Source: Zootoca vivipara
Lineage: Eukaryota
Direction: 5' to 3'
Length of the DNA: 64,000 bases
Assembly (NCBI RefSeq): GCF_963506605.1
Contig: NC_083276.1
Coordinates: forward strand, 100,874,001-100,938,000
In this document: in pieces, positions 5,714 through 55,218 of the stretch
How the letters are laid out: the number at the start of each line of letters is the position of its first letter
Numbering within the stretch: position 1 is the first letter of the stretch
The notes under the pieces: generated by a model
The model's database searches: none
Seen by the model: only the letters and a program-made list of their open reading frames with translations
What the model was told of the DNA's origin: nothing
Program-made: the position numbers and the translations under genes

Positions 5714-6068
5714 GGGTGGCACTGTGGGTTAAACCACTGTGGCACTTGGGCTTGCCGATTGAAAGGTTGGTGGTTCGAATCCCTGTGACGGGGTGAGCTC
5801 CCATTGTTCGGTGCCAGCTCCTGCCAACCTAGCAGTTCCAAAGCACACAGTGCAAGTAAATAAATAGGTACCACTCCGGCGGGAAGGTAAATGGCATTTC
5901 CATGCGCCGCTCTGGTTTCACCAGAAGCGGCTTAGTCGTGCTGGGCACATGACCCAGACAAACTATCTGCGGAAGCAGACAAACGCCGGCTCCCTCGGCC
6001 TTTAAAGCGAGATGAGCGCCGCAACCTCAGAGTCGTTGGACTTAATTGTCAGGGGTCCCTTTACCTTT
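5714..6068 (+). mobile_element. Sauria SINE (subfamily A)
   Basis: tRNA-like head with A box GTGGCACTGTGG and B box GGTTCGAATCC, core TAAATAGGTACC...GGGAAGGTAAA, tail CCCTTTACCTTT. Confidence 0.95.
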
Positions 6069-7280
6069 AGAGATTTGAACTTGGGTCTTCCCAATCCTAA
6101 TGCCACATTCTAACCCTTACGCCATATGGGGTGTCATTTTGGAATTCCTAAAATTGAAATATTAGTGGCATCTATTTAGCCCCTACTGCACAAATTCCTG
6201 TGTGGGATAATTGGGGAAACTTATTGATGTGAATTTGACATTTCTGCAAAATTAGGCATATAGCATGCACTCCTCCTTCTCCATATTCATATTACAGGTT
6301 CTGCACATGTTGGGCCAGACTTCTCATATCCTTAATTCTCCCTATACACACCTTCAACCCACATACACAACGGTCATCGTTATTAGAAGTAATATTACCA
6401 CTGTCATCATTATGCTCTACTGCCTTTACATCGTTCTTCAGGCAAATTGCCAGCTACTTATTACGTCAGGCTATTAACTGGATCTTAATTCAATGGCTTG
6501 GCAAGATTTGATGCAATGAGATTTGTGGGACCTTTTTTGCCTGGCATTTGCAATGTGCTGCTTTCAACATGAAACTGTGCACAAAAACCAAGAGTTTTAC
6601 ACGGCGTGCCTTTTAAAGCAGCACTTTGCAGCTTCAGGAGATCTGAACAGACATTGCACTTCTTCCTTTTGCTTTCCCCAAAGTTGGGGCTTTATCCATA
6701 AGGTAGGTATAACTTACAAGCTATAAGTGTTGAACTGAAGGGAATCAGCATAAGATGGTATCCTAACAACCCTGGAGAACCATTGCCATTGAGTGGAGAG
6801 AATACTTGATCTGACTTGACATAAGGTGGCTTGCTATGTTCCAGTGTTATCTTCTCAAGGACCTCTGATCATATTGATTTGGCCTTTGGAGGCAGGATGA
6901 AAAGGAGCTGCTGCGCTTCTAGACAGTAGTTAGACAGGTAGGTTAGTGGCTCTAAATCTCTAAAGCTAAACTTGTGCTGTTTGGTATCTCTGGTTGTGTC
7001 TCCTGTACACTCCTCATTAACCATCACCACCAAAACAACCCACAAAATGTATTGTGTCATCACCGCCATCTGTCCAATGGCTCATGAACCTCTGGTATGC
7101 ATGTGAGAATGCATGTGTTTTTATTTATTTAAAACATTTATTTATTTAAAGCAGTGCTATTTTTCTAGAAAAAGAGATCCCGGAACTCACCACAAACACC
7201 TCCTTTGTTCTCTTTAAAAAGCCCTGATTTAAAGCATTTATAAACTGATCGAGATTTCTAAAATCTCATAAGCAGTGAAA

Positions 7281-7700
7281 TTGTACCCTACCTTTCTTTA
7301 TAAGTTAAAGTCAAAGTGGCTTGCAAACTAAACTTTAAGCAAAACAAACCTAATGCAACATCACTGTACAAATCCACAGAAATTAAATAAAGGAAATACT
7401 TTCAAAAACAACATACTGTATCAGCAAAAAAGGCAAAGCACCATCACCCAATAATTGAAACACACTAAACGAAAGCAACCAGCAAAGACCTAAGCTGGGA
7501 CCAATTTCCACCTGCTGTCCAAACAGTTTACAATGACAAGGGTAGGCAGGCCTTCCTGGGAAGAGTATTTGACAGCATAGGTACCACCTCCAAAAAGGTC
7601 CTGCAAGGGAACCTGGAGAGAGATCTCAGATACTGAACAGAACACGTAACAAGGTAATGATGGAGAAAGATGGTCCTTTAAACTCCTTGGCCCAAATACT
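7281..7700 (-). mobile_element. Degenerate L2 LINE 3' fragment
   Basis: TTGTACCCTACCTTTC...AAAGTGGCTTGCAA (reverse L2 tail) and GGCCTTCCTGGGAAGAGTATTTGACAGC...AAAAAGGTCCTG typical of reverse L2 ORF2 end. Confidence 0.55.
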
Positions 7701-19335: not shown

Positions 19336-19700
19336 GGAATGCGGGTGGCGCTGTGGTCTAAACCACTCAGCCTCTTGGGCTTCCCGGTCAGAAGGTCGGC
19401 GGTTCGAATCTCTGCAACGGGGTGAGCTCCTGTTGCTCAGTCCCAGCTCCCGCCAACCTAGCAGTTTGAAAGCACGCCAAAGTCCAAGTAGATAAATAGG
19501 TACCTCTCCGGCGGGAAGGTAAATGGCGTTTCCGTGTGCTGCTCTGGTTTCGCCAGAAGCGGCTTAGTCATGCTGGCCACATGACCTGGAAAAATTGTCT
19601 GCAGACAAACACCGGCTCCCTCGGCCTGTAAAGCGAGATGAGCGCCACAACCCCAGAGTCGTCCGCGACTGGACTTAACTGTCAGGGGTCCTTTACCTTT
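19336..19700 (+). mobile_element. Sauria SINE (subfamily A), full length
   Basis: A/B boxes, core, ACCTTT tail; TSD AAGCCCAGCCTT (19324-19335) / AAACCCAGCCTT (19704-19715). Confidence 0.97.
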
Positions 19701-19931
19701 TATAAACCCAGCCTTAACAAGAACAAGAACCCAGTAAGTGTGGCACAAATCAACAGGGACATGTAAACCCCCCTCCCCTTTGCTTGAAACACCTTTGGTC
19801 TGCTAGTTATGCTACTTGCAAATTTCTTCCACAAATGTGCAAAAATGTACCCCCCTTTCCTTTTAGAGTTCTGAATTATGTGAACATGAACTTTTAAAAT
19901 GAAAGCCTCCATATTATAACAAGATACTGAG

Positions 19932-20018: not shown

Positions 20019-20719
20019 TTTTATTGGGTGTTGTATGGCCTTTTTGGGGTATATAATATTCCTGATTTAATTTCAGCCATTTTTTTGCCACTTCATCATT
20101 ACAAATACTAGGCAATAATTAAATTTCACACAGGAATAATTATTAGCATGCCTCAAGAAAGCTTCTGTTGGCTTTAAAATATTTGATTTGAGGAGTTGGG
20201 TGAGCAGTGCTGAAATAATCTGTGCATGTGTGAAGATCACCAAAAGCATCTACATTTCATTTTTCAGAGGGACTGCCATCCAAAGTGCGCTTCTAAAATA
20301 CACCCATGCTGCTTTTTTTTAGTGTTGGCTGTAGAAAATCTCAACCATAGCACACCTTCTGCAAATAGTTTCAATTGGTTGAAAATATACTTGTGAAATT
20401 CAGCAATAAGAAGATGCTAGATTGAACTTTAAGAGTGGTACCCTACTTTTGTCCCTCTGGTGATAGAAGGCATCTGTTATTGGGATGGAGAGGGAGGCTA
20501 ATTTTAGCAACACCTTCTGCCCTCTTCTGACTTTGATCTCCCACATCTTCCCCAGGTGACACCCCCCCCCCCAAATTGGCACAGCACCGTCCTATATCAC
20601 CCTAACAGTTTAAACACAACAAAATGTATAGAAAAGAAAACCCATCCACATAGAGTTCATAGTAATGCAAGAGTCCAGAGAGCAAAATTTAGGTTGCAAT
20701 CCGAACCCCACTTAAGAAA

Positions 20720-21086
20720 AAAGGTAAAGGACCCCTGACAGTTAAGTCCAGTCACGGACGACTCTGGGGTTGTGGTGCTCATTTTGCTTTACAGGTCGAG
20801 GGAGCCGGTGTTTGTCTGCAGACAGTTTTTTATGGGTCATGTGGCCAGCATGACTAAGCCGCTTCTGGCGAAACCAGAACAGCGCACGGAAATGCCATTT
20901 ACCTTCCCGTCGGAGTGGTACGTATTTATCTACTTGCCCTTTTTGGTGTGCTTTCAAACTGCTAGGTTGGTGGGAACTGGGACCGAGCAAGTGAGCTCAC
21001 CCTGTTGTGGGGATTTGAATCACCGACCTTCTGATCGGCAAGCCCAAGAGGCTCAGTGCTTTAGACCACAGCGCCACCTGCGTCCC
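20720..21086 (-). mobile_element. Sauria SINE (subfamily A), inserted in an older small palindromic repeat (~20691-21160)
   Basis: AAAGGTAAAGGACCCCTGAC ... CACAGCGCCACCTGCGTCCC; flanks AGGTTGCAATCC...CACTTA | CCTGAG...TAGGATTGTGCTG form the split host. Confidence 0.95.
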
Positions 21087-23578
21087 AATTACCTGAGTGT
21101 AAACATCACTAAAATCAATACAACTTACTCCTGAGTAGACACGTTTAGGATTGTGCTGTTAGTCTCTCTTCAACGGGAACTGTGCGAATGAATTTTCTAA
21201 ATAAATTATTTTGTGCAATCTGATTGTTATTATTTTTATTATTATTTTGCATATGGAGAGTAATCATTTTTCTTTCACTTTGTGTCAAAACATGTTGAGA
21301 GATTAGATTGCATCAAAGAACAGGAACTTTTTAGAATGGTAAGCGCTTCCTGGTGCGTGCGTGTGCATTATGCTTGTATTTATGCACAAGGACATCTTTC
21401 TGCAGATGTGTTCCTTCGGTGCATTTGCTGGCCAACTGTAAACTGATCACTTACAATTGTACTTGAGTGTTTAGTGACCAGAAAATGTACAAATGCTGCC
21501 TCTGCCAGAGTAACTGAAAGTGCACAGGCAGATTGAGGGAAATACTACAGGCAACAATTAGCCATCACGGTTACCCCTGCTAATACTGCAGAAAATTGAA
21601 ATGTTTGCCTCACTGGGAATTGAAGAGCATTTCAGAAGTTTATCCAGAACAGCAGCAGCAACAGCACCACAAATCTGGCTTTTAAAAATAAATCATATAT
21701 ATATATATATATGAGAGAAACGTAACAGTGGTTTTCTGTACATTTCTATTTTATGTTTCAGTAAGGCCATTCTATATCAATGTAGTCCTGATGAATGGAA
21801 TGCTGGCAGTCTCAAATGACATTTCAAAAGGTGCGGGGACATCGTTCCATAAATGACTGTGTCTGTAAGGCCAACTACATCAAAAAGAAACGGACTTGAA
21901 ATTGCCCCAGATAATCTTTAATACATAAAGATTTTTGCTAGGTGAAAGTGTTATGCTAAAGCTCATAAATCAAGCCAACTTAACAGGGTAGTATTCTGCT
22001 CTCTAGGTAAAGCCTAGCTTGTATTTCCCATTCTGCAGTACCAGCTTAGTATTAATATAATGAGAGGCTATATATATATATTGATAAAATAATGGAGCGT
22101 TTCCATTCAAAGGGTTGTATTGCTCAGTTGACAAAAAGGTTTCTATTCCCATAACAGGAAACAATTTTCAGTGAATTATCTCCCCTCATAAATCACCTCT
22201 GTAGGGTACCCCAATCCCCTGGTGAAAAATAAGTAGGGGTGGTCTGGTCGCAGAGAAGAGGGACAGTCACACACACACAAATTCTCCCACTGTTCCACTT
22301 TCAGAAACCTTACTGTCAGGTGTGTGACAGAACTGTATGCAATTCTGTGTTATTCTGGACTTGAAAGGGTTAGGCTATCAAGTCTCACCTGACCCAAGAA
22401 AACCCAGAGCCCCAACCCCGCTGAAAGCAGGTGCTCAGGGGGTATTTAATGCAAGTGTGGGAGGCCTTAGTTTGGTGGCTTGAGGGTTTGCAGAAGAGAG
22501 ATGGGGAATACCAAGGCTAACAGAGTCCATTTTCTACTGATGGAAACCCTTTCTGGATCAAAGAGGTTTCTTCCAATGGCTGGATACTATCTAGAAACAC
22601 CACCTTTCATTTATATTCTGGGTCTTTTTTCCCCTCCTGCAGTGTAAAATATGACTCGAATGTCAATATCACTATCAAGTACATTTTAGTGACACCTGTT
22701 GGTACCGCTACAGGCTTCCGTGCACACATGGCACCATATTGGAACAATGCAGTTGATTTGACATAATGCAAATAGGTAGAGTACATGGTGCGTGCTCTAT
22801 TTAAATAGCGATGAGGTTTGATCTGAGAAACATTTAACAACATTTCTACAGCAACAAGAACAAAAAGGCTTCGTTCTGACACAATACAATCTTGGCTTTT
22901 TCATTGTGTTGAAATTATACCTTTCAGAGAGCTTTAAGAAGGGTTTAATATTTTGTCAGATTGTCAGGCAGGCAGCTACAGTATTAGCATTTAAGCAACT
23001 GCTTAAAACTCATCTGTTCACCCACATTTTCCCTGAGGGGTGATCCGGCTATCTTGATGTATTAATCTGATCTACTGAACTGTGATGCGTTTCTATTTGT
23101 TCTATAAATGTGATTTTATTGTTGTATTTACGTTGTTTACTGCTGTTATATATATATTTTTTGATGTTGGTGGTATATAATTTTTTGCACCCATTTCCCC
23201 CCCTTATTCTCATATATATATAATGTATTTTAAAAGATCTATGGTTAAGAAAGATTAAAAACATAAATCAAAAGCTATGATGAAAACTGTCACTGACAAA
23301 TTATAAAACAGTCAGTATGAAAGCTACATTCAAAGGGATGGGAGCTGTCATCTTTTTCCTAAGTGCTGGCTATTGTAGGATACCAGTGGGTTTTCAAACC
23401 AGGCCGGGGGGGGGGCAATAAATATATTTAGGGAATGTACCATCTACACCTACTGTGTTTTGATTCCACCGAAACCCTGACATATGGCAATCCGACAGAT
23501 GGGGGCTTAGTGAGGAAGGCAGGGCCAGAATTGCAGGACCTTGGATAGCTCCAGACAGATAGCATTCTCTGACAACAG

Positions 23579-24361
23579 ATTAGACAACTGGGCCAAAGCA
23601 AACAAGATGAATTTTAACAGGGAGAAATGTAAAGTACTACACTTGGGCAAAAAAATTGAAAGGCACAAATACAGGATGGGAGACACCTGGCTTGAGAGCA
23701 GTACATGTGAAAAGGATCTAGGAGTCTTGGTAGACCATAAACTCGACATGAGTCAACAGTGTGATGCAGCAGCTAAAAAAGCCAATGCAATTCTGGGCTG
23801 CATCAATAGGAGTATAGCATCTAGATCAAGGGAAGTAATAGTACCACTATATTCTGCTGTGGTCAGACCTCACCTGGAGTACTGTGTCCAATTCTGGGCA
23901 CCACAGTTCAAGAAGGATACTGACAAGCTGGAACGTGTCCAGAGGAGGGCAACCAAAATGGTCAAAGGCCTGGAAACGATGCCTTATGAGGAACGGCTTA
24001 GGGAGCTGGGTATGTTTAGCCTGGAGAAGACAAGGTTAAGGGGTAATATGATAGCCATGTTCAAATATATTAAAGGATGTCATATAGAGGAGGGGGAGAG
24101 ATTGTTTTCTGCTGCTCCAGAGAAGTGGACACGGAGCAATGGATTCAAACTACAAGAAAAAAGCTTCCACCTAAACATTAGGAAGAACTTCCTGACAGTA
24201 AGAGCTGTTTGCCAGTGGAATTTGCTACCAAGGAGTGTGGTGGAGTCTCCTTCTTTGGAGGTCATTAACAGGCATATGTCAGGAATGCTTTGATGGTGTT
24301 TCCTGCTTGGCAGGGGGTTGGACTGGATGACCTTTGTGGTCTCTTCCAACTCTATGATTCT
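23579..24361 (+). mobile_element. 5'-truncated young CR1 LINE (ORF2 C-terminus + 3' UTR)
   Basis: ORF 23541-24293: RLDNWAKANKMNFNREKCKVLHLG...EKDLGVLVD...[11 protein letters not shown]...; tail CTATGATTCT; TSD ACAACAG at 23572-23578 and 24362-24368. Confidence 0.98.
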
Positions 24362-25828
24362 ACAACAGGATCTTGGAGCTCACCCAAGTCTTTTCACTGC
24401 ACAGTCAGCTCCTTCCTTGTGTGTGCCTATATTGGTGGACCACCAGGGAACACGCCGCTCTTGGTGTAAAAGAGAATCTGCCTCTGGGGACCCAACTTGG
24501 GATCTAGGCCTGGGTTCCATGCCTCTGTGGCTTTGATGGCTGATCATCATTCTCATCTGTGACAGAATCCTAGGTTCTGTTGCCCAGAATCGGTGGGGAT
24601 GGACCACAGCCAGATGGAGCTCTTTGTCCTGAGAGCTCCCTCTAGGTACTAGTACTGTCCTATCAGTATCACCCAGAGCTCTCAGCCAGCTGTCCACAAG
24701 GGCCTATCCCTGCTCAGCACCCCTAGAAAACCCAACCTCAGAGATTTTCAGCTCAGTCTTAGCAGCTTGCACCTGGTGAGGACATTATGTAAGTACTTGC
24801 TACCCCCCCCCCACAAACACACACAAACACCTACAAAAAATTATTGTCTAGCTTTGTGACCACTTCTGACTCCCTGCTGCTGCCTTGAGGCATGGCCCTT
24901 GCCTGATTTTGGCTACCTGTTCCCTGATTCCAAAACTCGACCCAGGCTGACTGCAGACTGGCCTCTCTTTTGTGAACTGCAAAAATGCTTGCTGTAGGCC
25001 CACATAGTAATTGCAGTCCATGTTCTTTTGTGAAGCCCAACAGTGCTGAGCTTCCCTGCTCTCTTAAATCATTAGCATTTTCTTTTGAGGAAGCAGCAGT
25101 AAATCCCTGTTGTTTGATTTAAAGGTGTCACTGAGAGGTTTGTAATTACGTCAGTGTCTACTGAAGCTGAAGTGATTGACAGGTGCTAGCATTTGAAACT
25201 CAAGGTGCTCCCCATAAAAGCCATCAATCAAGTCTCATTTCCATTTTTCAGATGGAGGAGATCTATGGAATTCAAAAGGTTGCACACTTTTTAAACAACC
25301 TAATGAAACTCAGCAAAAGTCCTGTGTTAAGGCGACAAGGCTTTCCCCATTGCCTACCACCCTTTCCCAAAAATTGGCTCGGGGGGGGGGGAGGTGGAAG
25401 ACCCCTTGGAACAGTGCCTTACCCAGTGGGTAAGAGGGACGTGGATGGATGTGTTGTAAAGAAATCTCTGACTTCCACGTGGCTGGAATGTGGCCTACTT
25501 TGCAAAACTAAGAATTGTATCTGTTTGCCCCACCCACTTTTTTGCATCTAGCTCCAACCACTACTGGCATATGGCCCCTGGAATGTTGCCCACAAGGGAA
25601 CATGGCCCCTGAGCTGAAGAAGGCTTCCTGCCCCTGCTTTAGTCTTTTGTGTTGCACTCTTTCCTTATGTGACAACCCTCTAAGTACCTAGTCCTGGGCC
25701 TGTGAATCATAACATGAAATTAGAAATAATCTGTACAGTGCCTAAAAATTCTCGGATCAATACTTGTCCACTTTGTAAGACTATGCTGTATTTGGCAAGT
25801 ATTGCTAGGCAAAGAACTCTTGATTATA

Positions 25829-26071: not shown

Positions 26072-27188
26072 TACAAGTCATTATGATTTCCGTGAATCAT
26101 TGAATTGTCAGTTTTAATACCTTAAGTGTTTGTTCCTTTGTATTTGCTGTAGCGTTCCTAAATGTTAGCTTTCTTGAAAACTTTCTACCAAATGTATTTT
26201 TATCTCTCAGGAATTCAGAAGAATTATTGACAGTTGCTGGGTCCTAAATGTATCACTGTTTCAAGGAAAATAACAAGTTTGCCTCAGGCTGCAGTTCATG
26301 CTATGTGATCACTTGATACTTGGGTCTATGTAGCGTCAAACGGAAAGAGAATGAGGAACCGCTGTCAGACTTGAAGGAGCTCAACCACCTGCCTTACAAG
26401 GAATTGTTATTTGGCATGCGGTTGGGATTCTCCCTGATTTCAAGTTCATGATAATTAATGACCGAGTTTCCAAGCAGATTTCTGTGAATTCAGGATGTGA
26501 CAAAACGGGAAGTTTATATTTCCTTCTGATTTTGGCTCTTACTCCAGCCTTGACAGCCAAAAGGTAAAAAATAAAGCTATGATGTAGGTACATTATAGTG
26601 GGTTAAGCTGGAAATATTTAATAGGGGTCATACCATTCAGCATACAAACATAATATTGTCCTCAATCAATATTTAACCTTTAGAAAAGTGCAACCTGAGT
26701 GTACTAAGCATAAGAAGGGAAGCTAATTGCTCTGTGATATATATGGTTCTCAGGTATACTTCAGTGGCTAAAGTAAAATTAATTAGGTTATAGGTAAGAT
26801 GGTAACATTAGGAAAATATATCTTTCTTCCCTCGCAGACCTTTAATTCAGTCAATAGGCATGAAAAATAGTGGAGGACTGTGCTGGCAATATAATTCAAA
26901 AGTCAGAGTACATCAGCAGCAAAAAGCTTATGCTACTCCACAACATTATAGTAAAATATTGCTTGGTGAAAAACAGCAATCGTTACTGATTGGGGTATAA
27001 ACACTTGTGGCCCATTAAAAGGGCTTGAGAATGAGCCAACAGAGGAACTCCTTAGGATCTGCAGTCACCCCCCCAAAAAAAAAATGCTATTCCACTAAGT
27101 CAGAAACATTCCTTCCAGCAATTGAAGAGGTTTTCCATTAGCAGAAGAGCATCTGTGGACCCAACCCTACAACCCCTTTTCTTCCTAG

Positions 27189-27540
27189 GTAAAGGTAAAG
27201 GGACCCCTGACCATTAGGTCCAGTCATGACCGACTCTGGGGCTGCGTGCTCATCTCGCATTATTGGCCGAGGGAGCCAGCGTACAGCTTCCAGGTCATGT
27301 GGCCAGCATGACAAAGACGCTTCTGGCGAACCAGAGCAGCACATGGAAACACCGTTTACCTTCCCGCTGTAGCGGTTCCTATTTATCTACTTGCATTTTG
27401 ACATGCTTTCGAACTGCTAGGTTGGCAGGAGCTGGGACCAAGCAACGGGAGCTCACCCCATCACAGGGATTCGAACCACCGACCTTCTGATCAGCAAGCC
27501 CTAGGCTCAGTGGTTTAACCCACAGCGCCACCTGGGTCCC
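27189..27540 (-). mobile_element. Sauria SINE (subfamily B), full length
   Basis: Complete body; 25-bp TSD ACCCTACAACCCCTTTTCTTCCTAG at 27164-27188 and 27542-27566. Confidence 0.98.
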
Positions 27541-30330
27541 TACCCTACAACCCCTTTTCTTCCTAGATACCTACAAATGCATATGGAAGGCTGTCATCAC
27601 ACTGCCACCATTGAGGGATTAGTATTGCATCATAGATTTGCATGAACCCAGGGTGGAATAAGGGAGCAAAAGGTAAGTTAGGTTGCACAACGCCAGTGGC
27701 CATGGCATGGGGGTAATAAGAGAAGGGGGGGAGAATTGAGGTTTAAAGCAATGACAGAAGTCTGAGTAAAGCAGGGATGGAGAGGACTAAGAGGCAAACA
27801 GTGGTTTTAAACCACAGCAGAGGTGTGAGTAAGCAACCTTCTCACCATGGACTATTTGAGGGATTGGCATCCTTTATCTCTCACACATGAAGCAGCTGGG
27901 GAATGGAAGAGGGAGACGTTTGAGTTCCCTGAAAAGGGAGAAACACTGAAAAGCAAAAAGAGTGGCATGGTGAAGACTGTGCTTCTGCTTTTACAATGCT
28001 TAATGCTTTAAAATAAATAAACAACAACAAAGAAGAACATTCTAGACATTGGCAGAAATCCCACCAAGCCATGTTACACAGAATCACATCAGAGCCACAC
28101 CGACCAACTACCTAGCCTAAACTGGCAGAAGCGAGTCAGCTATCGAGGGTGACTTGGCAGAAAAGTCTCTCCTAGACCCGACACCTCCCTCAAGTTAGAG
28201 AAGCACTAGAACTGAATGAACTTCATGACTCAGCATGTGCAGCAAGTGCCCCTATGCCTGAGCAGCAAACCTGCCTGGGCTGAGCTACCAAGCTTCTTGT
28301 GGCTCTGGTTCCTTAATTGCCTTCAGTAGACATGCTTCGTCGAAACAGACAATTTACTGGCATGCAAGAAAGATTTCAAAACTTGACTACATGTACAAGG
28401 TGCACAAGGGCACTGCTGTTCATGTTGCTGTGCTGTAACTTTGCCACCGGTTCTTTTGTGATTTCATTGCATGATTCCACTGTAAAGTTGGCTTATCTTT
28501 AACGGCCCTTGTATTTAAAGGTGAGGGGTGGGTCAAAGCACTAATGGCAAAACAATCAAACGAACCACAACCCATTCATGATCAGTTGGCCAACAAAGCA
28601 AAGCTATAACTCAGAGCTAAGCCATTATTTCTTAGAAAGCTTTTTTTATTTTTTATTAGAAAATGTATAATATTTTCCTCTTACCTCTTACCCCCTCCCT
28701 TAAAAAAAAAGCCACTTTGCATATTTTTTTTTAGATACTCTGCACTATTTCTTTTGTGGCAACCATCAAATTTCACCCTTAAAATGTCTTCGAAAGATGC
28801 TACATAAGATCCCTTGTGGAGGATGCAAAATGGCGTCCAATCTGCCAACATAGTTGCTGCAGCTGTCGGTCACAGCTGCAGGAAACAACAGATACAAGAA
28901 CAACTATGCACACAGGGGAAGGAAGAAGAAGCTGTGTTTCTGCCACTGCTAATCATTCAACCCACCTCTGACAAACTACTGAAGAATCTTCTTTTTGCTC
29001 CCCACCCCCACTCAGAATTTTCATGAAATGCTTCCTCCATTTTCTCCAGAGGGGGGACAAGGGGAAAAATGTCCCCCCCAAAACAAGGAGCTTGTCCCCC
29101 CACTCCCCCCTGGCCTTAATATATACTGTCATTTTTATTTCAGATTTCTTAACATATGGGACACAACTCTCCTCCCCCTTTTTTTCTGGTGAGACTACTG
29201 ACTTGCTCTGCCCACAAATAGGATAGAGAATTTTTGGAGACCATTGGCACACAACTCTAAACACGCCACGTGCAAAGGAAAGACACCACTGTTATATTGC
29301 TATTGTATTTGGAACAGTTGTTCCTTGACACCAACTCTTTCTAAAGAATCTAATTTACTAGTATACCTGACAGGATACAGCAACTAATAACTGGTCTTTC
29401 CAGGTTCTTAGCTGATTCAAGACCTAGTCACCTCAGTGGGACTTGTGCCGGAGAGCACTCTTTGCTTGGTTGTAAATCATGTACCACCACCACCCCCTTT
29501 AAAAAAAGGGAAAAAAGCCAAATAGCTTATACAGAGTAAATCTTCTACAACTTACTGCAGTGCTAATCATAAGCATGTTATACAGTAAGTTTGCCTGAAG
29601 CTAAGTTAAGCAGGCAGATTAAGACCGTAATATAGTATCAGGGCNNNNNNNNNNNNNNNNNNNNNNNNNNNNNNNNNNNNNNNNNNNNNNNNNNNNNNNN
29701 NNNNNNNNNNNNNNNNNNNNNNNNNNNNNNNNNNNNNNNNNNNNNNNNNNNNNNNNNNNNNNNNNNNNNNNNNNNNNNNNNNNNNNNNNNNNNNNNNNNN
29801 NNNNNNNNNNNNNNNNNNNNNNNNNNNNNNNNNNNNNNNNNNNNNNNNNNNNNNNNNNNNNNNNATATTCTGATCAATCAAGAGCCCATCCACAACTGAC
29901 AGCCTCGCTAGGCTAAAACATGCCATGGGAGGATATTTTTCTATGTGTGCCATTCCCCTCTCCCTCCTTTTGTATTACATGTGGGCAAAGAAGACCGAGG
30001 AATGCTACAGGTACAAAAATGCATACTTGCCCAACAGTGCACATGGCGATGAAATGACTTCTGTTTCTGATATTCCGTAATGTTCCATTTCCTTAGGCTA
30101 GCTTCCAGTACATCATAGTAGGAAGCTTTGGGCCGTTTTATCACTTGTCTGTTACTAGAACTGCACAGGACCAAACAGCTTTATTTTTCTTTTGTTCTGT
30201 CTTTTCAGATGCCTGATTGTCCTACAATTCTTGCAGCACATTTGACCGTGTCTGTAAAATGAGTCTGTCGTGAAAAATGGGCCTCAGCCAAACGGAGAAT
30301 GGCTTGGGAATTTAAGGTGGATGCCTAAGC

Positions 30331-32101: not shown

Positions 32102-32645
32102 TGTCACGGTCCGGTCAGTGGGCGGTTGAAGCCCTGGCTGAGGACGTCAGGACCAGAGGCAAGATGGTGATGTAGAAGCAGGAACAGGTGCAGGGCTGAT
32201 GGTCCAGCAGCAGGCAGTCGCAGAGTCAAGGAGCAAGGCAGAGGCGAAGGTCTGGGAGTCGAGAAGCAAGGCGTCGGCAAGGCAAAGGTCCAAGGGTCGA
32301 GGATCAAGGCATCGGCAAGGCAAAGGTCCAAGGGTCAAGGATCAAGGCGTCGGCAAGGCAAGGGTCCAAGGAGCGAGAGGCCAGAGGCAACCAGGCAGGG
32401 GTAGTGTTGCTGTGGCAAAGAGTTGAAGGAAAATGCCAAGCTTTTTATCCCTCCCAGCTCTTGCCACCAGGTGCAGTGAGTTATTAAGTGGCCTCACCTG
32501 AGTGGCCACTCCTTGCTTCTCCAGCACAAGCTGAGGTCTTCACCTGAGTGGCCACTCCTTGCTTCTCCAGCACAAGCTGAGGCAGGCCCCAGTCCTGCAA
32601 AGCACTACAGGCCCCTGAGCCTGACCTCTGCCCATACTCCTGACA
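32102..32645 (-). mobile_element. Solo LTR (Gypsy/ERV-type)
   Basis: TGTCA...TGACA termini, perfect 5-bp TSD CCAGT (32097-32101, 32646-32650), minus-strand GGGATAAAAAGC TATA-like box, internal tandem repeats. Confidence 0.9.
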
Positions 32646-35007: not shown

Positions 35008-35238
35008 TGGTTACAGGTAGGTAGCCGTGTTGGTCTGGGTCGAAGTAAAATAAAAAAATTCCTTCAGTAGCACCTTAAAGACCAACTAAGTTTTTATTTT
35101 GGTATGAGCTTTCGTGTGCATGCACACTGAAGAAGTGTGCATGCACACTGAAGAAGTGTGCATGCACACGAAAGCTCATACCAAAATAAAAACTTAGTTG
35201 GTCTTTAAGGTGCTACTGAAGGAATTTTTTTATTTTAC
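35008..35238 (-). mobile_element. Penelope-like element 3' terminus arranged as an inverted (fold-back) pair
   Basis: Perfect 83-bp inverted arms 35045-35127 / 35156-35238; AATAAA; CTGAAGA-stem-GAAA hammerhead-type core; 13-bp TSD ACATTGAAAGGAT (34995-35007, 35237-35249). Confidence 0.85.
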
Positions 35239-35555
35239 ATTGAAAGGATGTCTTCTGCAAAATTAAAATTGGAGCATTACTATTTGGAATAATATTTTCA
35301 GATATCAAGGAGGCACAATGGCACTGTAGTTAATGCTAGTAGCCTCGTGATAGGTTTCAAAATTCCAAAGACGATGAGGTTTACCAATGTGCAAACTTAC
35401 AAACCAATCCAGTAACTGCCACAGGTAGCACGAGATGAAAAAAGTGCTTTAAAAAATGGTGCATTTGTCATTTTTTACTCCAGTTTTCAACAGGCAAGAA
35501 TTCTGCCAGTACAGTACAACATTTGCATAGGTTTTAGTTATGTGATGTGACTGTA

Positions 35556-43625: not shown

Positions 43626-44386
43626 AGACCGCTCCTCTTCCCAGAGGGGCGGGGTGGCAGGCGGGCCCCATGTACTCCCTGTGATAGCCATGGGGCGTGG
43701 TAAAGCCCCCTGCGTCACTGGGAGTCTCGACCGCATCACGCCCCCCAGCTGACCAATCCAGCCAGCCGAGGGGGGGGGTGCGGCTTACCCCATTTAAACC
43801 ACAGCGCGGCTCAGGAGCTCCTTCTCCTTACCTTGTCCTTTGTCAGATCTCTCACCCTCCCATTTTCATGCGTTCTTCATCTTGGCCTTGCTATGGACCA
43901 CGGTTGGTTGCCTGTTGAGGGGCCAGGTAGGAATTTTTCCACTTGGCAAATTGGCACCTGCCATGTGGTTTTCACCTGCCTCATAGCAATCATCACAACT
44001 TTCTAAGGTTTGGCAGTTAGGCATTGGTAAAACCTGGTTGATGGGAGGGGATCTTGTGGCCTTCACCTGCCCCTCCTCTTTAACGGGGTTCCATTAAAGG
44101 TATCCGGGGTGTGTGGAACTTGTCCAAAGCCTGGGTAGCGGCTAGGGCCATGCCACGACCCCATCGGGAACTCTGGGGGAGCTCGCAGTTGATGTATATC
44201 AACAGGGCTCCCCCTACTGGTGGTTGAGTCAGATATAGTCGGTTCAATTCCAATGCCTAAGCCAATACCGCTCACATCTGTAACTAATAAAGTTGTGGCC
44301 TTAATTATCCCATTAACCCCAAATACTGGTGTCCATTTGTTTTATTATCCAAGAATTGGGGGAGGGTTCGGGGCCTTGCCGTGCAA
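43626..44386 (+). mobile_element. LTR-like terminal repeat of a retroelement, possibly Ngaro/DIRS (tyrosine recombinase) type; copy A
   Basis: GC-rich promoter-like start with CCAAT and TTTAAA boxes, AATAAAGTTGTGGCC near the 3' end, ends GTGCAA, no TG..CA termini or TSD seen; homologous to 51144-51930(-). Confidence 0.6.
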
Positions 44387-47102
44387 TCAAAATAAAAGGC
44401 AAATCAATTGCAAAGCGGCAGCAGCAAATAGCAATGCAATAGTAAGATTGCAGAGGACTATTGCTAGTCACCACCAGTGGGACTCTTACTCAGCCCCCCC
44501 CCCCCAAGATTTGCCTGTACTGGGCACATCTAATTTGCCTATACTTGGAACACCCTTCACTGAATCAGGCAGAATAATATAACAGAGAATCTCTTCCCAT
44601 GGTTCCAAACTCTGGAGCTGATAGAAGTGAAATATATGCAATATCGCTAAAAACCCAAATTGTACTGGAAAGGCATGCAGTGCAAAAGCCTGGTCACTGC
44701 CACATACATATTTAAAGTGGTGGGCATTAAAATTGCAATTAAGATAAAGCATTTCACCAGAGTACCTTCAATAAACACAAATTAATAAACCAATCAGCAA
44801 CAAGAGCAACTTCAGGAAAATTATAGCATGCATCATATAATCTCACAGAGATAAGTTAGGAAAGCCTAATGTGAATTTCTTTAATGTGCCAGTTAATTTG
44901 GGGCATTGCTGGTATAACCTTCTCCAAAGGTGCTTTAACGGAAATAATACAAGCTGAAGAGCACTTTTCTCTTTTGTCTTGGCTTTATTTATTTTGATTT
45001 CATTCTTTCTCTGAGCAACTTGGGGGGATATATAGTGTACTGCCCACTCGGATATCATCACAGTACACTATGACGTTGGTTTGGCTGAGCATGTATCAGA
45101 GTCCAGTATGAGACACACTCTACCATGTTGACTCAACGTTCTGATTTATTGGATTACAATGAAAATATTTTATAAACTGTTTATTTCATCTATATTTTGA
45201 TCATTGTATCACATCTGCTTCTTTTTATTGTCTGTTGATTGTATCAATATTTTCATGGACGACACTGATGTCGATTCCTACTGACTGCTGCGGGTATGTC
45301 CTACCTTCACTGCCTCTGAACAGCAGTTGCTAGGAATGGCAACTACAGAGAATGCTATTCTGCTCGAGTCTTACTTGCATGATTCTCTATGGGCATCTGC
45401 TTGGCCAATCTTAGAAAAATGCTGGTGCGCTAGATGAGCCTTTGGTCACATCCAGCAGTCTTTTCTCATCTGCCTGTTTACATTTCATCAGATACGAGTA
45501 ACTGTTATTGTATTCTCATTTCTGCATCAGAGCGAAGACCAATTTTACACAATTCTGCATGAAGCAAGTTTTGAAGTCGTTGACTTCCAAAAATTCTCAC
45601 CCACCTCGCCTCATCCAAAAGAAATTTCAATCACCAGCAACAACACCATCTGTATCTGTCTCTCTTTTTTGTTTTTGTTTTTTGTAATAACAAGAATATG
45701 GCAAGCAGTCCATTTCAGCTGCTACACATGCAAATGAGCTTCCCCCCCCCCCCTCAAGGCTGTTAAACAATTAAACTGGAGTTTGGGCAATAAAACAACG
45801 GGGTATAGTGCAAACAACTACAACAGGGGTGACAGCCTCTTTCGACCCTGTGGAGACAATCGCAAACCAGAGAAGCTGTGATGGGCACCACATACACAAA
45901 CTGTAATAAAGCACACACTGCACACACTGTTCTATGGGCTTTCAAGCCTAATTTGAGTAGGGGAGGTAGAGGCACAGCCACAAGTGCGCACCTACAGGTG
46001 CCACACTGGCAATCCCTGGGTTACCAGATGCACAAAAGTGGCCCCTCTAGTATACCAGGCTAATTGTTAGCCACTTGCTTCCTCATCACCAATGTCTATG
46101 TTCTGTGCCACACATCACAGTATAGGTGTGTCAAGGAACAAACATGGGAATAGTGTCTTACTGTCTTTTGTATACTACTTCTTCTGCGGTAGAAAGAAAA
46201 AGGAAGAACATAAGACAGGCTTGCTGGATCAGGCCAATGACCCATCAGGTCCAAATCAGTGGACAATCAGATGCCTGTGGGAAGCCCGCAAGCTGGAAAT
46301 GAGCACAACAGCACTCTGCCCACTTGTAAACTTGGAGGTTTTATTAAGTTGAACGATGTGTGTTACAGCCTCCCCCCATCCTAGCCACACTTTCTCCACT
46401 ACTTTCTCCCTGGGGCTCTGCATACCAATGTAGAATTGTGACATAGGGAGAAGGTTGAAAGTAGGGATGCATGGATCAGTTTCTTTCTGTTCTGTCACTT
46501 AAAGTGTACATTTTCAATGTGTTTTGATACATTTCTTAGCTTAAAAACCATTGGGTTTGCACACTAATCTTGGATGTTCAGATCATGACAATCCATATAA
46601 GAATTCACAAATATAAATTTCCCCAATTGTCCCTAGTTGCAAGCGAGTATACACATTCCCAGATAATTTCCTGTCCTCTTCATAGAAACCAGGGGTGGGA
46701 AGGACAGACAGTCTAATTCTAATCTATGTTTGTTCAGAAAGAAGCCTTATTGATGGCAATGGGACATGCACCCCTTGTAAGAAAGAGGGTTTTTTGTGTT
46801 GTTGTTGGCGTCCATCTGTATCGGGAGACAATGTGGGAGTGCTTCACAAAATGTTTGCTTGCCTATCCAAAACTACACCCACTAATGATGGCAGGCCATG
46901 ATGGGAGCAAAATATAGGAGGAAGAGGAGGATGTGAGCTTATTGGCCCAGGAAGGAGAAAATACACAAATCATTTTATAAGTGAGATATTAAATGCATTG
47001 GATCCCAGCATAATTTATGCCTGGTAATTATTTCAGCACCAACAGAAAGATCTGTACCATGCTGATATCTCTAAATTGTGCCCCACTACCTCTTAGTGGA
47101 AA

Positions 47103-47457
47103 GGACGCGGGTGGTGCTGTGGGATAAACCACAGAGCCTAGGGCTTGCCGATCAGAAGGTCAGCGGTTTGAATCCCCACAACGGGGTGAGCTCCCGTTGT
47201 TTGGTCCCAGCTCCTGCCAACCTAGCAGTTTGAAAGCACATCAAAGTGCAAGTAGATAAATAGGTACTGCTCTGGCGGGAAGGTAAACGGCATTTCCGTG
47301 CACTGCTCTGGTTCGCCAGAAGCGGCTTTGTCATGCTGGCCACTTGACCTGGAAGCTATACGCCGGCTCCCTCAGCCAATAAAGCGAGATGAGCGCCGCA
47401 ACCCCAGAGTCGGTCACGACTGGACCTAATGGTCAGGGGTCCCTTTACCTTTACCTT
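47103..47457 (+). mobile_element. Sauria SINE (subfamily B), full length
   Basis: GGACGCGGGTGGTGCTGTGG head, (ACCTTT)n tail; 14-bp TSD TACCTCTTAGTGGA (47087-47100, 47458-47471). Confidence 0.98.
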
Positions 47458-51143: not shown

Positions 51144-51930
51144 TTGCGTGTTTAGACCTTTAAAACTCCCCCCTTAAATAAATTCAGACAAGACTCAAAT
51201 TTTGATTTGGTTTTTGGCAGAATTTAGGCAACAACTTTATTGATTACATCAGGCGAGTGGTTGCCTAGGTTCTGGTTCGACTAGCTCTCTGCACCATTGC
51301 AGGTAGCACTGACCCAGAGCACCAGCATAGGTCAGCCTAGGGTGAATACCTGGAATGGCAGAAAGCTGGGGACAGGCTATATCCACCACACAGATGTCCC
51401 CCTGGACTCAGGCACGGGCACAACCCCCTCACAGGGTTGACCAAACCATAGAGTCCCTGGATTCCTTTAACGGAATACCCTTCACATAGGGATGGCGAGA
51501 GCACTCCCCCATCCCTATCACCTGAACCAGAGCCTATCTGCAACCTTACAAGTTGTGACGATTTGCTACGTGGCAGGCGAAACCCAAGTGACACCAGCCA
51601 ATCAGCCAAGTGGGGAAAATTCCTGCCATGCTCCTGTCCCAAAGACAGATGACACACGACGGCATAGCAAGGTCAAGCGCGCAAGCCCTAAAAGTAGGGA
51701 GAGGTGGGCGGGTGTTCCGATGCACTTGCCAAAAGAGGAAGCTCTGAGTCATGTGCATGAGCATATATAGGTCCATTGATCGGTTTGGCTAGCATCCCAT
51801 TGGTCTGATTAAACCCAGCATCAAGGGACCTACCAATTGGATGTTGTGGCTATCCAATCGTACCCACCCACAACACAGGGTTTGGTTGCCAGGTCGCACT
51901 GCAACATGCACCCTCTTTGAGGGAGGACAC
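51144..51930 (-). mobile_element. LTR-like terminal repeat, possibly Ngaro/DIRS type; copy B
   Basis: Minus strand: CCAAT boxes, TATATA, shared structured core, AATAAAGTTGTTGCC, ends CACGCAA; homologous to 43626-44386. Confidence 0.6.
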
Positions 51931-52484
51931 GATATATCACTGCTTTGACACTCGGGTGGCCCACAGGGGTTTCAAGTGGATGTCACCAGTCCAACATGGA
52001 AAGATGGTTCTCTGCATTCCCAACTACATTGACCAGTCAGACCTTGAGCATGACCAAAAAGTTTACCCATGTAGTATGCTTTCTCTTTTTGGCACTTTCT
52101 AATAAAGAAGAGAAAATCTGACTATTTTGTGGACCATGACACATGATGGATAGGTTTCATTTGGCTTGGTGGTTCCCAAGTTGTGCAAACAGAGATAAGG
52201 AGTGTGCAGTCATCTTGGAGATGTGTGTGTTGCTCAGTATCAGTCATGGGAGAAATATCAGTGATGAAAGAAACATTTCCCTAAAAGACAGCTTGTTTAT
52301 CTCTGCCAATGATCTTCCTGTAAAATGTATCATTTCAAGTGTGGGATGGGCTCCAGGTTGCATTTTTCAGCTGTGGGCAATGGGAAGGTACCATCGGTCT
52401 ACCCAGACTCTGCTGAATGTGTTTACAGTCCCCTTGAAAGTGCCCCAGAATCCTTTATAACATGGCAGGGTTCTGCCACACACT

Positions 52485-54260: not shown

Positions 54261-54870
54261 TAGCTTAGCTAAGCCACTTCCCAATCCTGTATATTTATTT
54301 GGAAGATAAATCTAGGCTTCCTCCTGCCCATTTTTTTTTTAAAGTTCTGTTACAGACAGATTTCTGTGACCAAATTATACTACTTATACCACAGTAGGTA
54401 ATAAAATGATAGGACATCTGAGCAGATACATCAGCACCTTTGCCTTTGATTTGATTAGTAAAGCAATATAATAATAATACACTAACATTCCATTTCCCTT
54501 TCACAAAAGACTGAGCTAAATAATTGCCTTTTGTTTTTCATTGCAGGGTTATTAAATCAGCATATATTCTTTTGGCACAGCAGCAGCTTTATTACTTTGA
54601 GGCAGAAGATGCTTTAATTAGAAAAGTTACTGTTGGAATAAAAGGTGCCTTCAGTCACACATCACAAAATCAGAGGAAGTTAGTAGCTCTCTCTTTCTGT
54701 AGATATACGGTGCTCCAAATTGTTTCTCTGGTGTCTCAAAGACGTTTAGTCAAGATAGAGCAGAAAGCAGCTGTTGAATTGTCTATATTTTTCAAGTGTG
54801 GCCATTGCTTAATTTTCTGCTTTTAAAAAAGGTCTCCGGGCTGAGTGGGAGCCATGCCTCTCAGACCTAG

Positions 54871-55218
54871 GTAAAGGGTAAAGGGACCCCTGACCATTAG
54901 GTCCAGTCGTGACTGACTCTGGGGTTGCGCGCTCATCTCGCATTATTGGCCGAGGGAGCCGGCGTATAGCTTCCAGGTCATGTGGCCAGCATGACAAAGC
55001 CGCTTCTGGCAAACCAGAGCAGCACATGGAAACGCCGTTTACCTTCCCGCTGTAGCGGTTCCTATTTATCTACTTGCATTTTGATGTGCTTTCGAACTGT
55101 TAGGTTGGCAGGAGCTGAGACCAAGCAACGGGAGCTCACCCCAACACAGGGATTCGAACCGCCAACCTTCTGATCAGCAAGCCCTAGGCTCAGTGGTTTA
55201 ACCACAGCACCACCTGGG
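54871..55218 (-). mobile_element. Sauria SINE (subfamily B)
   Basis: Complete body; 11-bp TSD CTCAGACCTAG (54860-54870, 55219-55229). Confidence 0.97.

Follow-up and report, generated by a model that had tools for sequence, protein, structure and literature searches.

The window analysed here (64,000 nucleotides of the Zootoca vivipara genome, contig NC_083276.1, positions 100,874,001 to 100,938,000) contains two diverged repeats on opposite strands that share a short block. This locus raises the question of what kind of element the two repeats represent and which role the shared block might play. A sequence-only reading of this DNA had described the repeats as LTR-like and the block as a structured RNA motif acting in cis. 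The positions of the relevant features are summarized in Table 1.

Table 1. Features of the two repeats and of other elements in the window
Feature	Position	Strand	Basis or remark
Copy A, solo A-C-B unit, Ngaro family A	43626..44386	+	terminates in GCAA
CCAAT box (43753-57) and TATA-like TTTAAA (43793-98), repeat A	43753..43798	+	sequence
Complete conserved three-way junction, spacer C, copy A	43882..44002	+	model R1, RNAalifold
P1, 5' strand (partner 43983-43994)	43884..43894	+	helices 1-2, 83% and 96% of cells paired
P2 hairpin with bulged purine, variable length	43906..43924	+	95% paired, two-sided change in 3/6 pairs
Shared block with lower stem P3, U-rich internal loop (AN-U3-5 / U3-6-CG, where poly(A) is predicted to bind), upper stem P4 and variable loop	43926..43980	+	P3 97% paired, two-sided change in 3/6 pairs
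x, near-invariant 10-mer complementary to x' (44290-44299) with one G-U	43992..44001	+	first three bases can also close P1
y, opening bases of repeat B, long-range partner y'	44010..44027	+	unit self-match
y', arm of long-range helix	44250..44265	+	family-specific complementary versions
Poly(A) signal AATAAA (44286-91) overlapping x' (44290-99)	44286..44299	+	sequence
Copy B, solo A-C-B unit, family B	51144..51933	-	copies 90-92% alike
Three-way junction, copy B	51549..51676	-	101.4 bits (copy B itself in model seed)
AATAAA, copy B	51236-51241	-	
Presumed CR1-like 3' ends	2039-2628, 23794-24375		
Presumed Sauria-SINE-like copies	5714-6076, 19343-19702, 20710-21088, 27182-27544, 47098-47457, 54865-55203		
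Near-perfect MITE-like palindrome, two 102-nt arms, no spacer	35040-35243		arms 93% complementary
38-nt tandem repeat, GC-richer stretch	32242-32377		

Both repeats are solo A-C-B end-units of Ngaro (tyrosine-recombinase) retrotransposons and not LTRs. In the 1.44-Gb genome, we obtained 4774 first-look candidates for family A, the copies of which are about 73-86% alike, and 4167 for family B, and 40 of each were scored. The unit ends are fixed and have GCAA/ACAA termini, and the true 5' end of copy B is located about 3 nt past position 51930, where it had been placed before. An ERV/Gypsy-type LTR was rejected because the termini are not of the TG...CA type and because target-site duplication stays at about chance level (a flanking direct repeat of at least 5 nt in 3 of 30 family-B copies over 42 offset pairs). 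The LTR-like label had to be given up, and the relatives of these units code for a tyrosine recombinase (YR) and have split direct repeats.

A search of the genome for this enzyme yielded 102 YR matches, mostly open frames of 330-336 aa, and 16 stretches around such matches were examined for repeats and for the motif. The B1 and B2 repeats were 99-100% identical in 15 of the 16 stretches and A1/A2 were visible in several. Intact relatives follow the order A1-ORF1-RT-YR-(putative SGNH)-B1-A2-C-B2. In the clearest element (L095), which has this order with a unique spacer C, A1 (1271-1479) equals A2 (6748-6956) and B1 (6348-6752) equals B2 (7135-7539), all at 100%. Pfam RVT_1 was detected in four of the four ORF2 tested (E ~1e-10) and was the only domain that Pfam reported in the scanned ORF2s, and Phage_integrase (E 1.4e-5) remained just under the curated cut-off in L095. 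The SGNH-like ORF that follows the YR comprises 209 aa with GHS and DGVH motifs, and its Pfam match to Lipase_GDSL_2 is weak (E 0.21). Since the ORFs of the element overlap without gaps, its genomic RNA is unspliced.

When L095 was aligned to copy A, unit positions 231-402 (75%, E 4e-25) and 601-693 (82%) matched; the similarity falls in C and B. This colinearity with A2-C-B2, together with the lack of LTR hallmarks, identifies the window units as solo A-C-B pieces. Solo units also occur in young intact families (8 and 6 of the 30 best C matches each). For the two families present in the window itself, a genome search with the exact junction of B and A gave 0 matches, and their parents were not found. 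An internal domain between unit positions 602/603 was considered and rejected, as the extra DNA of one related copy (L061) consists of nested foreign insertions and of a stretch of about 30 bp absent from copy A, with no RT-sized ORF. Both window copies are ordinary decayed, inert remnants. Elsewhere in the genome, about 100 YR matches fall into several families with 100%-identical split repeats, and from these sequences Ngaro looks recently active in Zootoca vivipara. A tandem extra A-C-B unit (L084, 6654-9203) and a head-to-tail element pair (L090) fit recombinase action at the B/A junction.

Ngaro elements with an SGNH hydrolase have been described in Xenopus (DIRS-53_XT, PMC9210276) and solo AB repeats are known from Cafeteria (PMC8547959). 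As far as the cited parts of these papers go, these elements resemble ours in the arrangement A1-ORFs-B1-A2-B2, the RT, the YR, the fourth SGNH-like ORF and the isolated end-units. They differ in that the elements described here have a 160-390-nt unique spacer C with a conserved fold between A2 and B2, and the same parts of the papers mention no RNA structure. The SIRE of the Trypanosoma cruzi element VIPER likewise combines A2, a short exclusive internal region and B2 in a dispersed non-coding unit, but it belongs to a kinetoplastid element, its internal region measures about 30 bp and the relevant section of PMC6681497 describes no fold.

The shared block is present where it had been located, both in copy A (plus strand: GGTAGG 43926-31, AATTTTT 43932-38, upper stem and loop 43939-68, TTTTCA 43969-74, CCTGCC 43975-80) and in copy B (51572-51627, minus strand), and no other stretch matches as well between the two copies. 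The fold that had been drawn for it holds for copy A (z -3.05, 1 of 200 shuffles as good) but is weaker for copy B alone, where another register is taken (z -1.69, 11 of 200). The pairing-preserving substitutions proposed for this pair of copies are in fact one-sided wobble changes plus one mismatch, so that the two copies alone show no covariation; two-sided changes are seen across families only.

When a plain alignment of 22 sequences was submitted to RNAalifold, P1, the P2 hairpin and P3 met at a junction unprompted. The motif is the U-rich internal-loop arm of a larger structure, a three-way junction of about 120 nt in the unique spacer C. Copy A scores 114.5 bits under model R1, the seed of which contains copy A itself. 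In 15 of the 16 stretches, each element has a single motif, and this lies in C; the exception (L089) is without A2-C, and L084 carries two motifs owing to its tandem unit. In the model-fitted alignment (34 distinct rows), 91.1% of the cells are paired with two-sided change in 17 of 30 pairs (0 of 500 shuffles), and in an unfitted MAFFT alignment with the upper stem added the values are 90.5% and 8 of 30 (2 of 500 shuffles), but the shuffle controls ignore relatedness and the fitted alignment leans to the model. Slid controls of the fitted alignment gave 32-54% pairing. More telling than the shuffle statistics is that P2 and P4 differ in length and sequence among families yet remain paired. In single-sequence folds, the junction with an open U-loop is the minimum-energy state in 6 of 9 cases.

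Conservation is unevenly distributed over this structure. Across 8 families, mean identity amounts to 0.79/0.89 in the U-tracts, 0.84/0.77 in P3 and 0.98 in x, compared with 0.465 in the rest of the unit. Thus, the U-rich internal loop is conserved as had been proposed, whereas the ATTGGC loop is not, since P4 and its loop (0.42) fall below the remainder. Among the 30 fully parsed rows of 38, the 5' tract comprises 3-5 U and the 3' tract 3-6, and the tracts grow jointly on both sides (3-4/3, 4-5/4, 4/5, 5/6). G-C pairs are kept on both sides of the loop, on the lower side set off from the U-tracts by AN/CG, and of the two nearest the loop, one is paired in all 33 and the other in all 34 rows scored for it. 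Folding is better for the sense than for the antisense strand in 9 of 9 comparisons, and the G-U pairs favour sense RNA.

Might such a block simply reflect common descent with no selection on structure? The window copies do descend from related families, and the expectation that the block is better kept than its surroundings holds across families (U-tracts, P3, x) but not within family B (0.927 for the block vs 0.916 for the rest; family A, 0.90 vs 0.84). Neutrality within a family is to be expected of remnants after insertion, and the stems keep their pairing although they vary between families (two-sided change in 17 of 30 pairs, and still in 8 of 30 in the unfitted alignment), so that we consider mere homology hardly credible. 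The proposal of a conserved, functional cis-acting RNA element is supported by the cross-family covariation, the single-copy position in intact elements and the strand asymmetry.

A scan of Rfam for an already known domain gave no relevant match at gathering score in the window, nor up to E 5 in five intact elements. A search of literature listings, which covered neither the main surveys of ENEs nor Goodwin and Poulter 2004, Repbase or Dfam, retrieved no description of this fold. Ngaro elements, solo units and ENEs were already known.

Downstream of the junction, long-range pairing is predicted to connect spacer C with the poly(A) signal. The 10-mer x is complementary to x', whose sequence includes the last bases of AATAAA in B. 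The arm y, with which B opens, has its pairing partner y' a short way upstream of the hexamer, and the two arms occur in family-specific versions; the predicted helices x:x' and y:y' nest. For x:x', the predicted probability reaches at least 0.8 in 8 of the 10 intact elements and is 0.52 and 0.16 in the remaining two; covariation is silent on this helix since both of its strands are invariant. The sequence x lies 294-510 nt upstream of AATAAA. The minimum-energy fold of the entire 534-nt L095 short RNA retains the U-loop together with x:x' and y:y', with P1 displaced; in that of the decayed copy A, P3 is lost. A C-rich box before the fold (window 43855-43863) is complementary to a G-rich box after y (44041-44049), with similar boxes in other families; this pairing would cross the nested helices and may represent an alternative state.

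The same context could suggest that C selects the poly(A) site: as an upstream enhancer made up of a U-rich site for a protein and a signal resembling a splice acceptor, it would activate B2 while the identical B1 is masked. The hexamers of B1 and B2 are identical, so that a choice needs flanking cues, and in 10 of 10 elements the predicted paired fraction of the 25 nt before the hexamer is high at B1 (0.61-0.90) and lower, 0.27-0.55, at B2, with unique sequence upstream of B1 pairing with the stretch that leads to the hexamer. But at B1 only 5 of 10 elements show a clear occlusion of the first three hexamer bases, one (L092) is occluded at both sites, and x:x' covers the last hexamer bases at B2 as well. 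This explanation accounts better for the long-range helices than for the U-loop, and we regard it as improbable. In 5 of 8 families, a pyrimidine tract with YAG/G resembling a 3' splice site, which would suit such an enhancer, precedes x by 116-276 nt. We observed this signal in spacer C of L083, L085, L091, L095 (~6996) and window copy B, and L083 has several of them in tandem after a long A-rich tract; it could serve terminal exon definition or allow host transcripts to splice into solos. Just upstream of B1, the elements L083-L097 carry a family-specific arm and a small hairpin that pair with the 25-40 nt preceding the AATAAA of B1, a candidate read-through switch according to the folding models.

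Where the motif lies in the transcript depends on the RNA considered. It had been placed just downstream of the TATA box, which is correct for solo units or for a short RNA driven by A2, but in the genomic RNA the motif is part of the 3' UTR, about 320 nt upstream of the last poly(A) signal. The CCAAT and TATA-like boxes of repeat A probably constitute a promoter, judged from their sequence, and their order is identical in A1/A2 of the intact families. When about 6% of three RNA runs of one study was aligned to L095:5300-7160, 168, 159 and 53 reads were obtained, and since most of these are 90-99% alike to L095, they derive from relatives. In two runs, reads of one orientation (sense if the library is of the usual stranded type; depth in X11 42-73 vs 0-2) extend over C and the body of B. 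No reads fall in the ORF4 bins (5993-6307) and almost none at the B1/A2 junction. The C-to-B joint is spanned by 13 and 4 reads. Read ends in X11 pile up at L095 6682 and 6691, which is 17 and 26 nt past the hexamer starting at 6660, and no poly(A) loose end was present among the rows listed for the L095 reads. The third run was sparse and mixed. Such short RNAs may originate at the A promoter, or they may enter via the splice-acceptor-like site at ~6996. Family-B reads were found on both strands across the whole unit and beyond its ends, which indicates passive transcription and gives no evidence of expression of its own.

These reads also bear on the suggestion that the block is a self-cleaving ribozyme or an element acting at the DNA level, for instance as a reverse CCAAT box in the loop or as a structure of single-stranded cDNA for the recombinase. 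Three-way junctions occur in small ribozymes, and the ATTGG of the loop is a reverse CCAAT; DIRS cDNA is single-stranded according to the relevant part of PMC7192593. On the opposite side, Rfam gives no match, no ribozyme-like core was seen, and reads cross both the fold and the C-to-B joint. In addition, the loop sequence is replaced in several families, the G-U pairs prefer sense RNA (9 of 9), and the recombination ends are 260-380 nt away. We judge both variants very unlikely.

The explanation we favour, with a probability of roughly 50%, is that the motif forms the U-rich internal-loop arm of a conserved junction in Ngaro spacer C that acts as an ENE-like clamp on the element's own poly(A) tail. 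According to the cited passages of PMC7583470 and PMC13541005, ENEs are internal loops rich in U, flanked by short helices, that bind poly(A) as U-A-U triples and slow decay, and the corresponding passage of PMC12501189 states that Evade needs its ENE and the adjacent G-C pairs for RNA stability and mobility. By analogy, the U-rich loop of Ngaro would bind the tail as a U-A-U triple helix, and a clamped tail would be deadenylated more slowly, stabilising the RNA. The helices y:y' and x:x' are predicted to fold repeat B back in such a way that the tail begins about 10-20 nt from the base of the junction. At B1, the family-specific upstream arm is predicted to pair up to the hexamer and may favour read-through. 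Such stabilisation would be valuable to an unspliced RNA that must survive until packaging.

We count in favour of the ENE-like clamp that the U-tracts and the flanking stem are conserved while the apical loop is free, that the U-tract lengths rise together, that the two G-C pairs nearest the loop are kept, that most single-sequence folds (6 of 9) have the open U-loop in their minimum-energy state, that the sense strand is preferred, and likewise the probability of x:x', the read ends and the unspliced RNA. Element identity, single-copy position, conservation with covariation, and the sense C+B reads of a young family that end just past AATAAA are directly supported. On the opposite side, the 3' tract has only 3 U in family B, in L052 and in the L218-L220 family, compared with five triples in PAN (cited section of PMC7583470), a conserved AN/CG 2x2 element separates the U-tracts from the lower stem, and the ENE families of Rfam gave no match up to E 5 in five intact elements. 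In families with AA at this element, the A's could pair with 3' U's and thereby shrink the loop. The displaced P1 in the L095 short RNA, the loss of P3 in copy A, the missing poly(A) loose end among the rows listed and the blindness of the shuffle control to relatedness also count against the clamp.

As far as the cited parts of the sources describe them, known ENEs (KSHV PAN, Evade/Copia93, plant and fungal TEs) have a U-rich loop flanked by G-C-rich helices close to the 3' end of an unspliced TE RNA, an arrangement that the Ngaro motif appears to share. The Ngaro fold differs in being embedded in a three-way junction, a scaffold that the same parts of PMC7583470, PMC12501189 and PMC13541005 do not mention for ENEs, in its AN/CG beside the loop, in having as few as 3 U per side, and in a tail predicted to be brought in by long-range helices. 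Its host is a vertebrate tyrosine-recombinase element, whereas the cited part of the ENE review names plants, fungi, slime mould and stickleback retroviruses.

The main rival explanation, though a less probable one, is a role as packaging and reverse-transcription start signal. Gag or RT would bind the junction, minus-strand DNA would start at the C/B2 border, and the B fold-back would let the 3' region of the same RNA (y' or x') serve as primer; spacer C would be present only in RNA read through B1. Hepadnaviral epsilon and self-priming LTR elements work in this way. Like epsilon, the Ngaro fold has an unpaired U-rich segment between two stems and belongs to a retroelement without an obvious tRNA primer site, but it has a symmetric internal loop instead of a one-sided bulge, is located at the 3' end, and no matching acceptor repeat was found for it. 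C occurs once per intact element, and the B1/B2 identity (99-100%) begins abruptly at helix y, about 0-8 nt after x, in 10 of 10 elements compared and equally in the young copies listed; there, copying of B2 should be bypassed if synthesis began at this position. P2 retains a bulged purine in a covarying stem, a feature typical of protein-recognition sites, and the cited part of PMC7192593 states that the primer of DIRS-1 reverse transcription is unknown. Short C+B RNAs without ORFs carry the same fold, which weakens the case for strict full-length selection, the B border has no conserved match to the UUUC of the loop, which a primer jump of the epsilon type would require, and the paired U-tracts of matched length are left unexplained. 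This role and that of an ENE are compatible and can coexist.

The sequence-only reading had also suggested that the motif is shared with CR1 elements, and we presume that the CR1 3' UTRs of some turtles and frogs contain a similar stretch. A model search of the window outside the two units, CR1-like ends included, gave nothing better than E 0.4. In the genome, the proposed pattern had 2 matches, one degenerate but full Ngaro-type fold (63 bits) and one unscored. A looser pattern had 28, of which 27 were Ngaro-type and one was a single-copy relic (L241:1473-1550, plus strand) with P2, P3 and the U-loop but without P1 or x (24.5 bits; as it was selected by pattern, its E-value is biased), for which no repeat family was found in the genome. 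Metagenomes gave 108 pattern matches, none credible among the 80 scored with R1 (best E 0.34), and none of the 9 matches in viral contigs scored.

Ngaro/DIRS elements are abundant in this genome, with thousands of first-look candidates per family and about 100 YR matches, most of them in long open frames. A conserved 120-nt fold at the inferred replication boundary bears on their primer, their packaging signal and their choice of the poly(A) site. Speculatively, and with rather low probability, the ENE-like junction and the long-range helices might constitute a 3'-end RNA machine of Ngaro, which chooses the poly(A) signal, clamps the tail and primes at B2, with an arm that is maybe shared with CR1 LINEs; if true, this would answer how tyrosine-recombinase retrotransposons prime reverse transcription. 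If the motif is an ENE, triple-helix protection of poly(A) would extend to a new order of elements in vertebrates, and the fold would provide a compact natural RNA stabiliser with a new scaffold.
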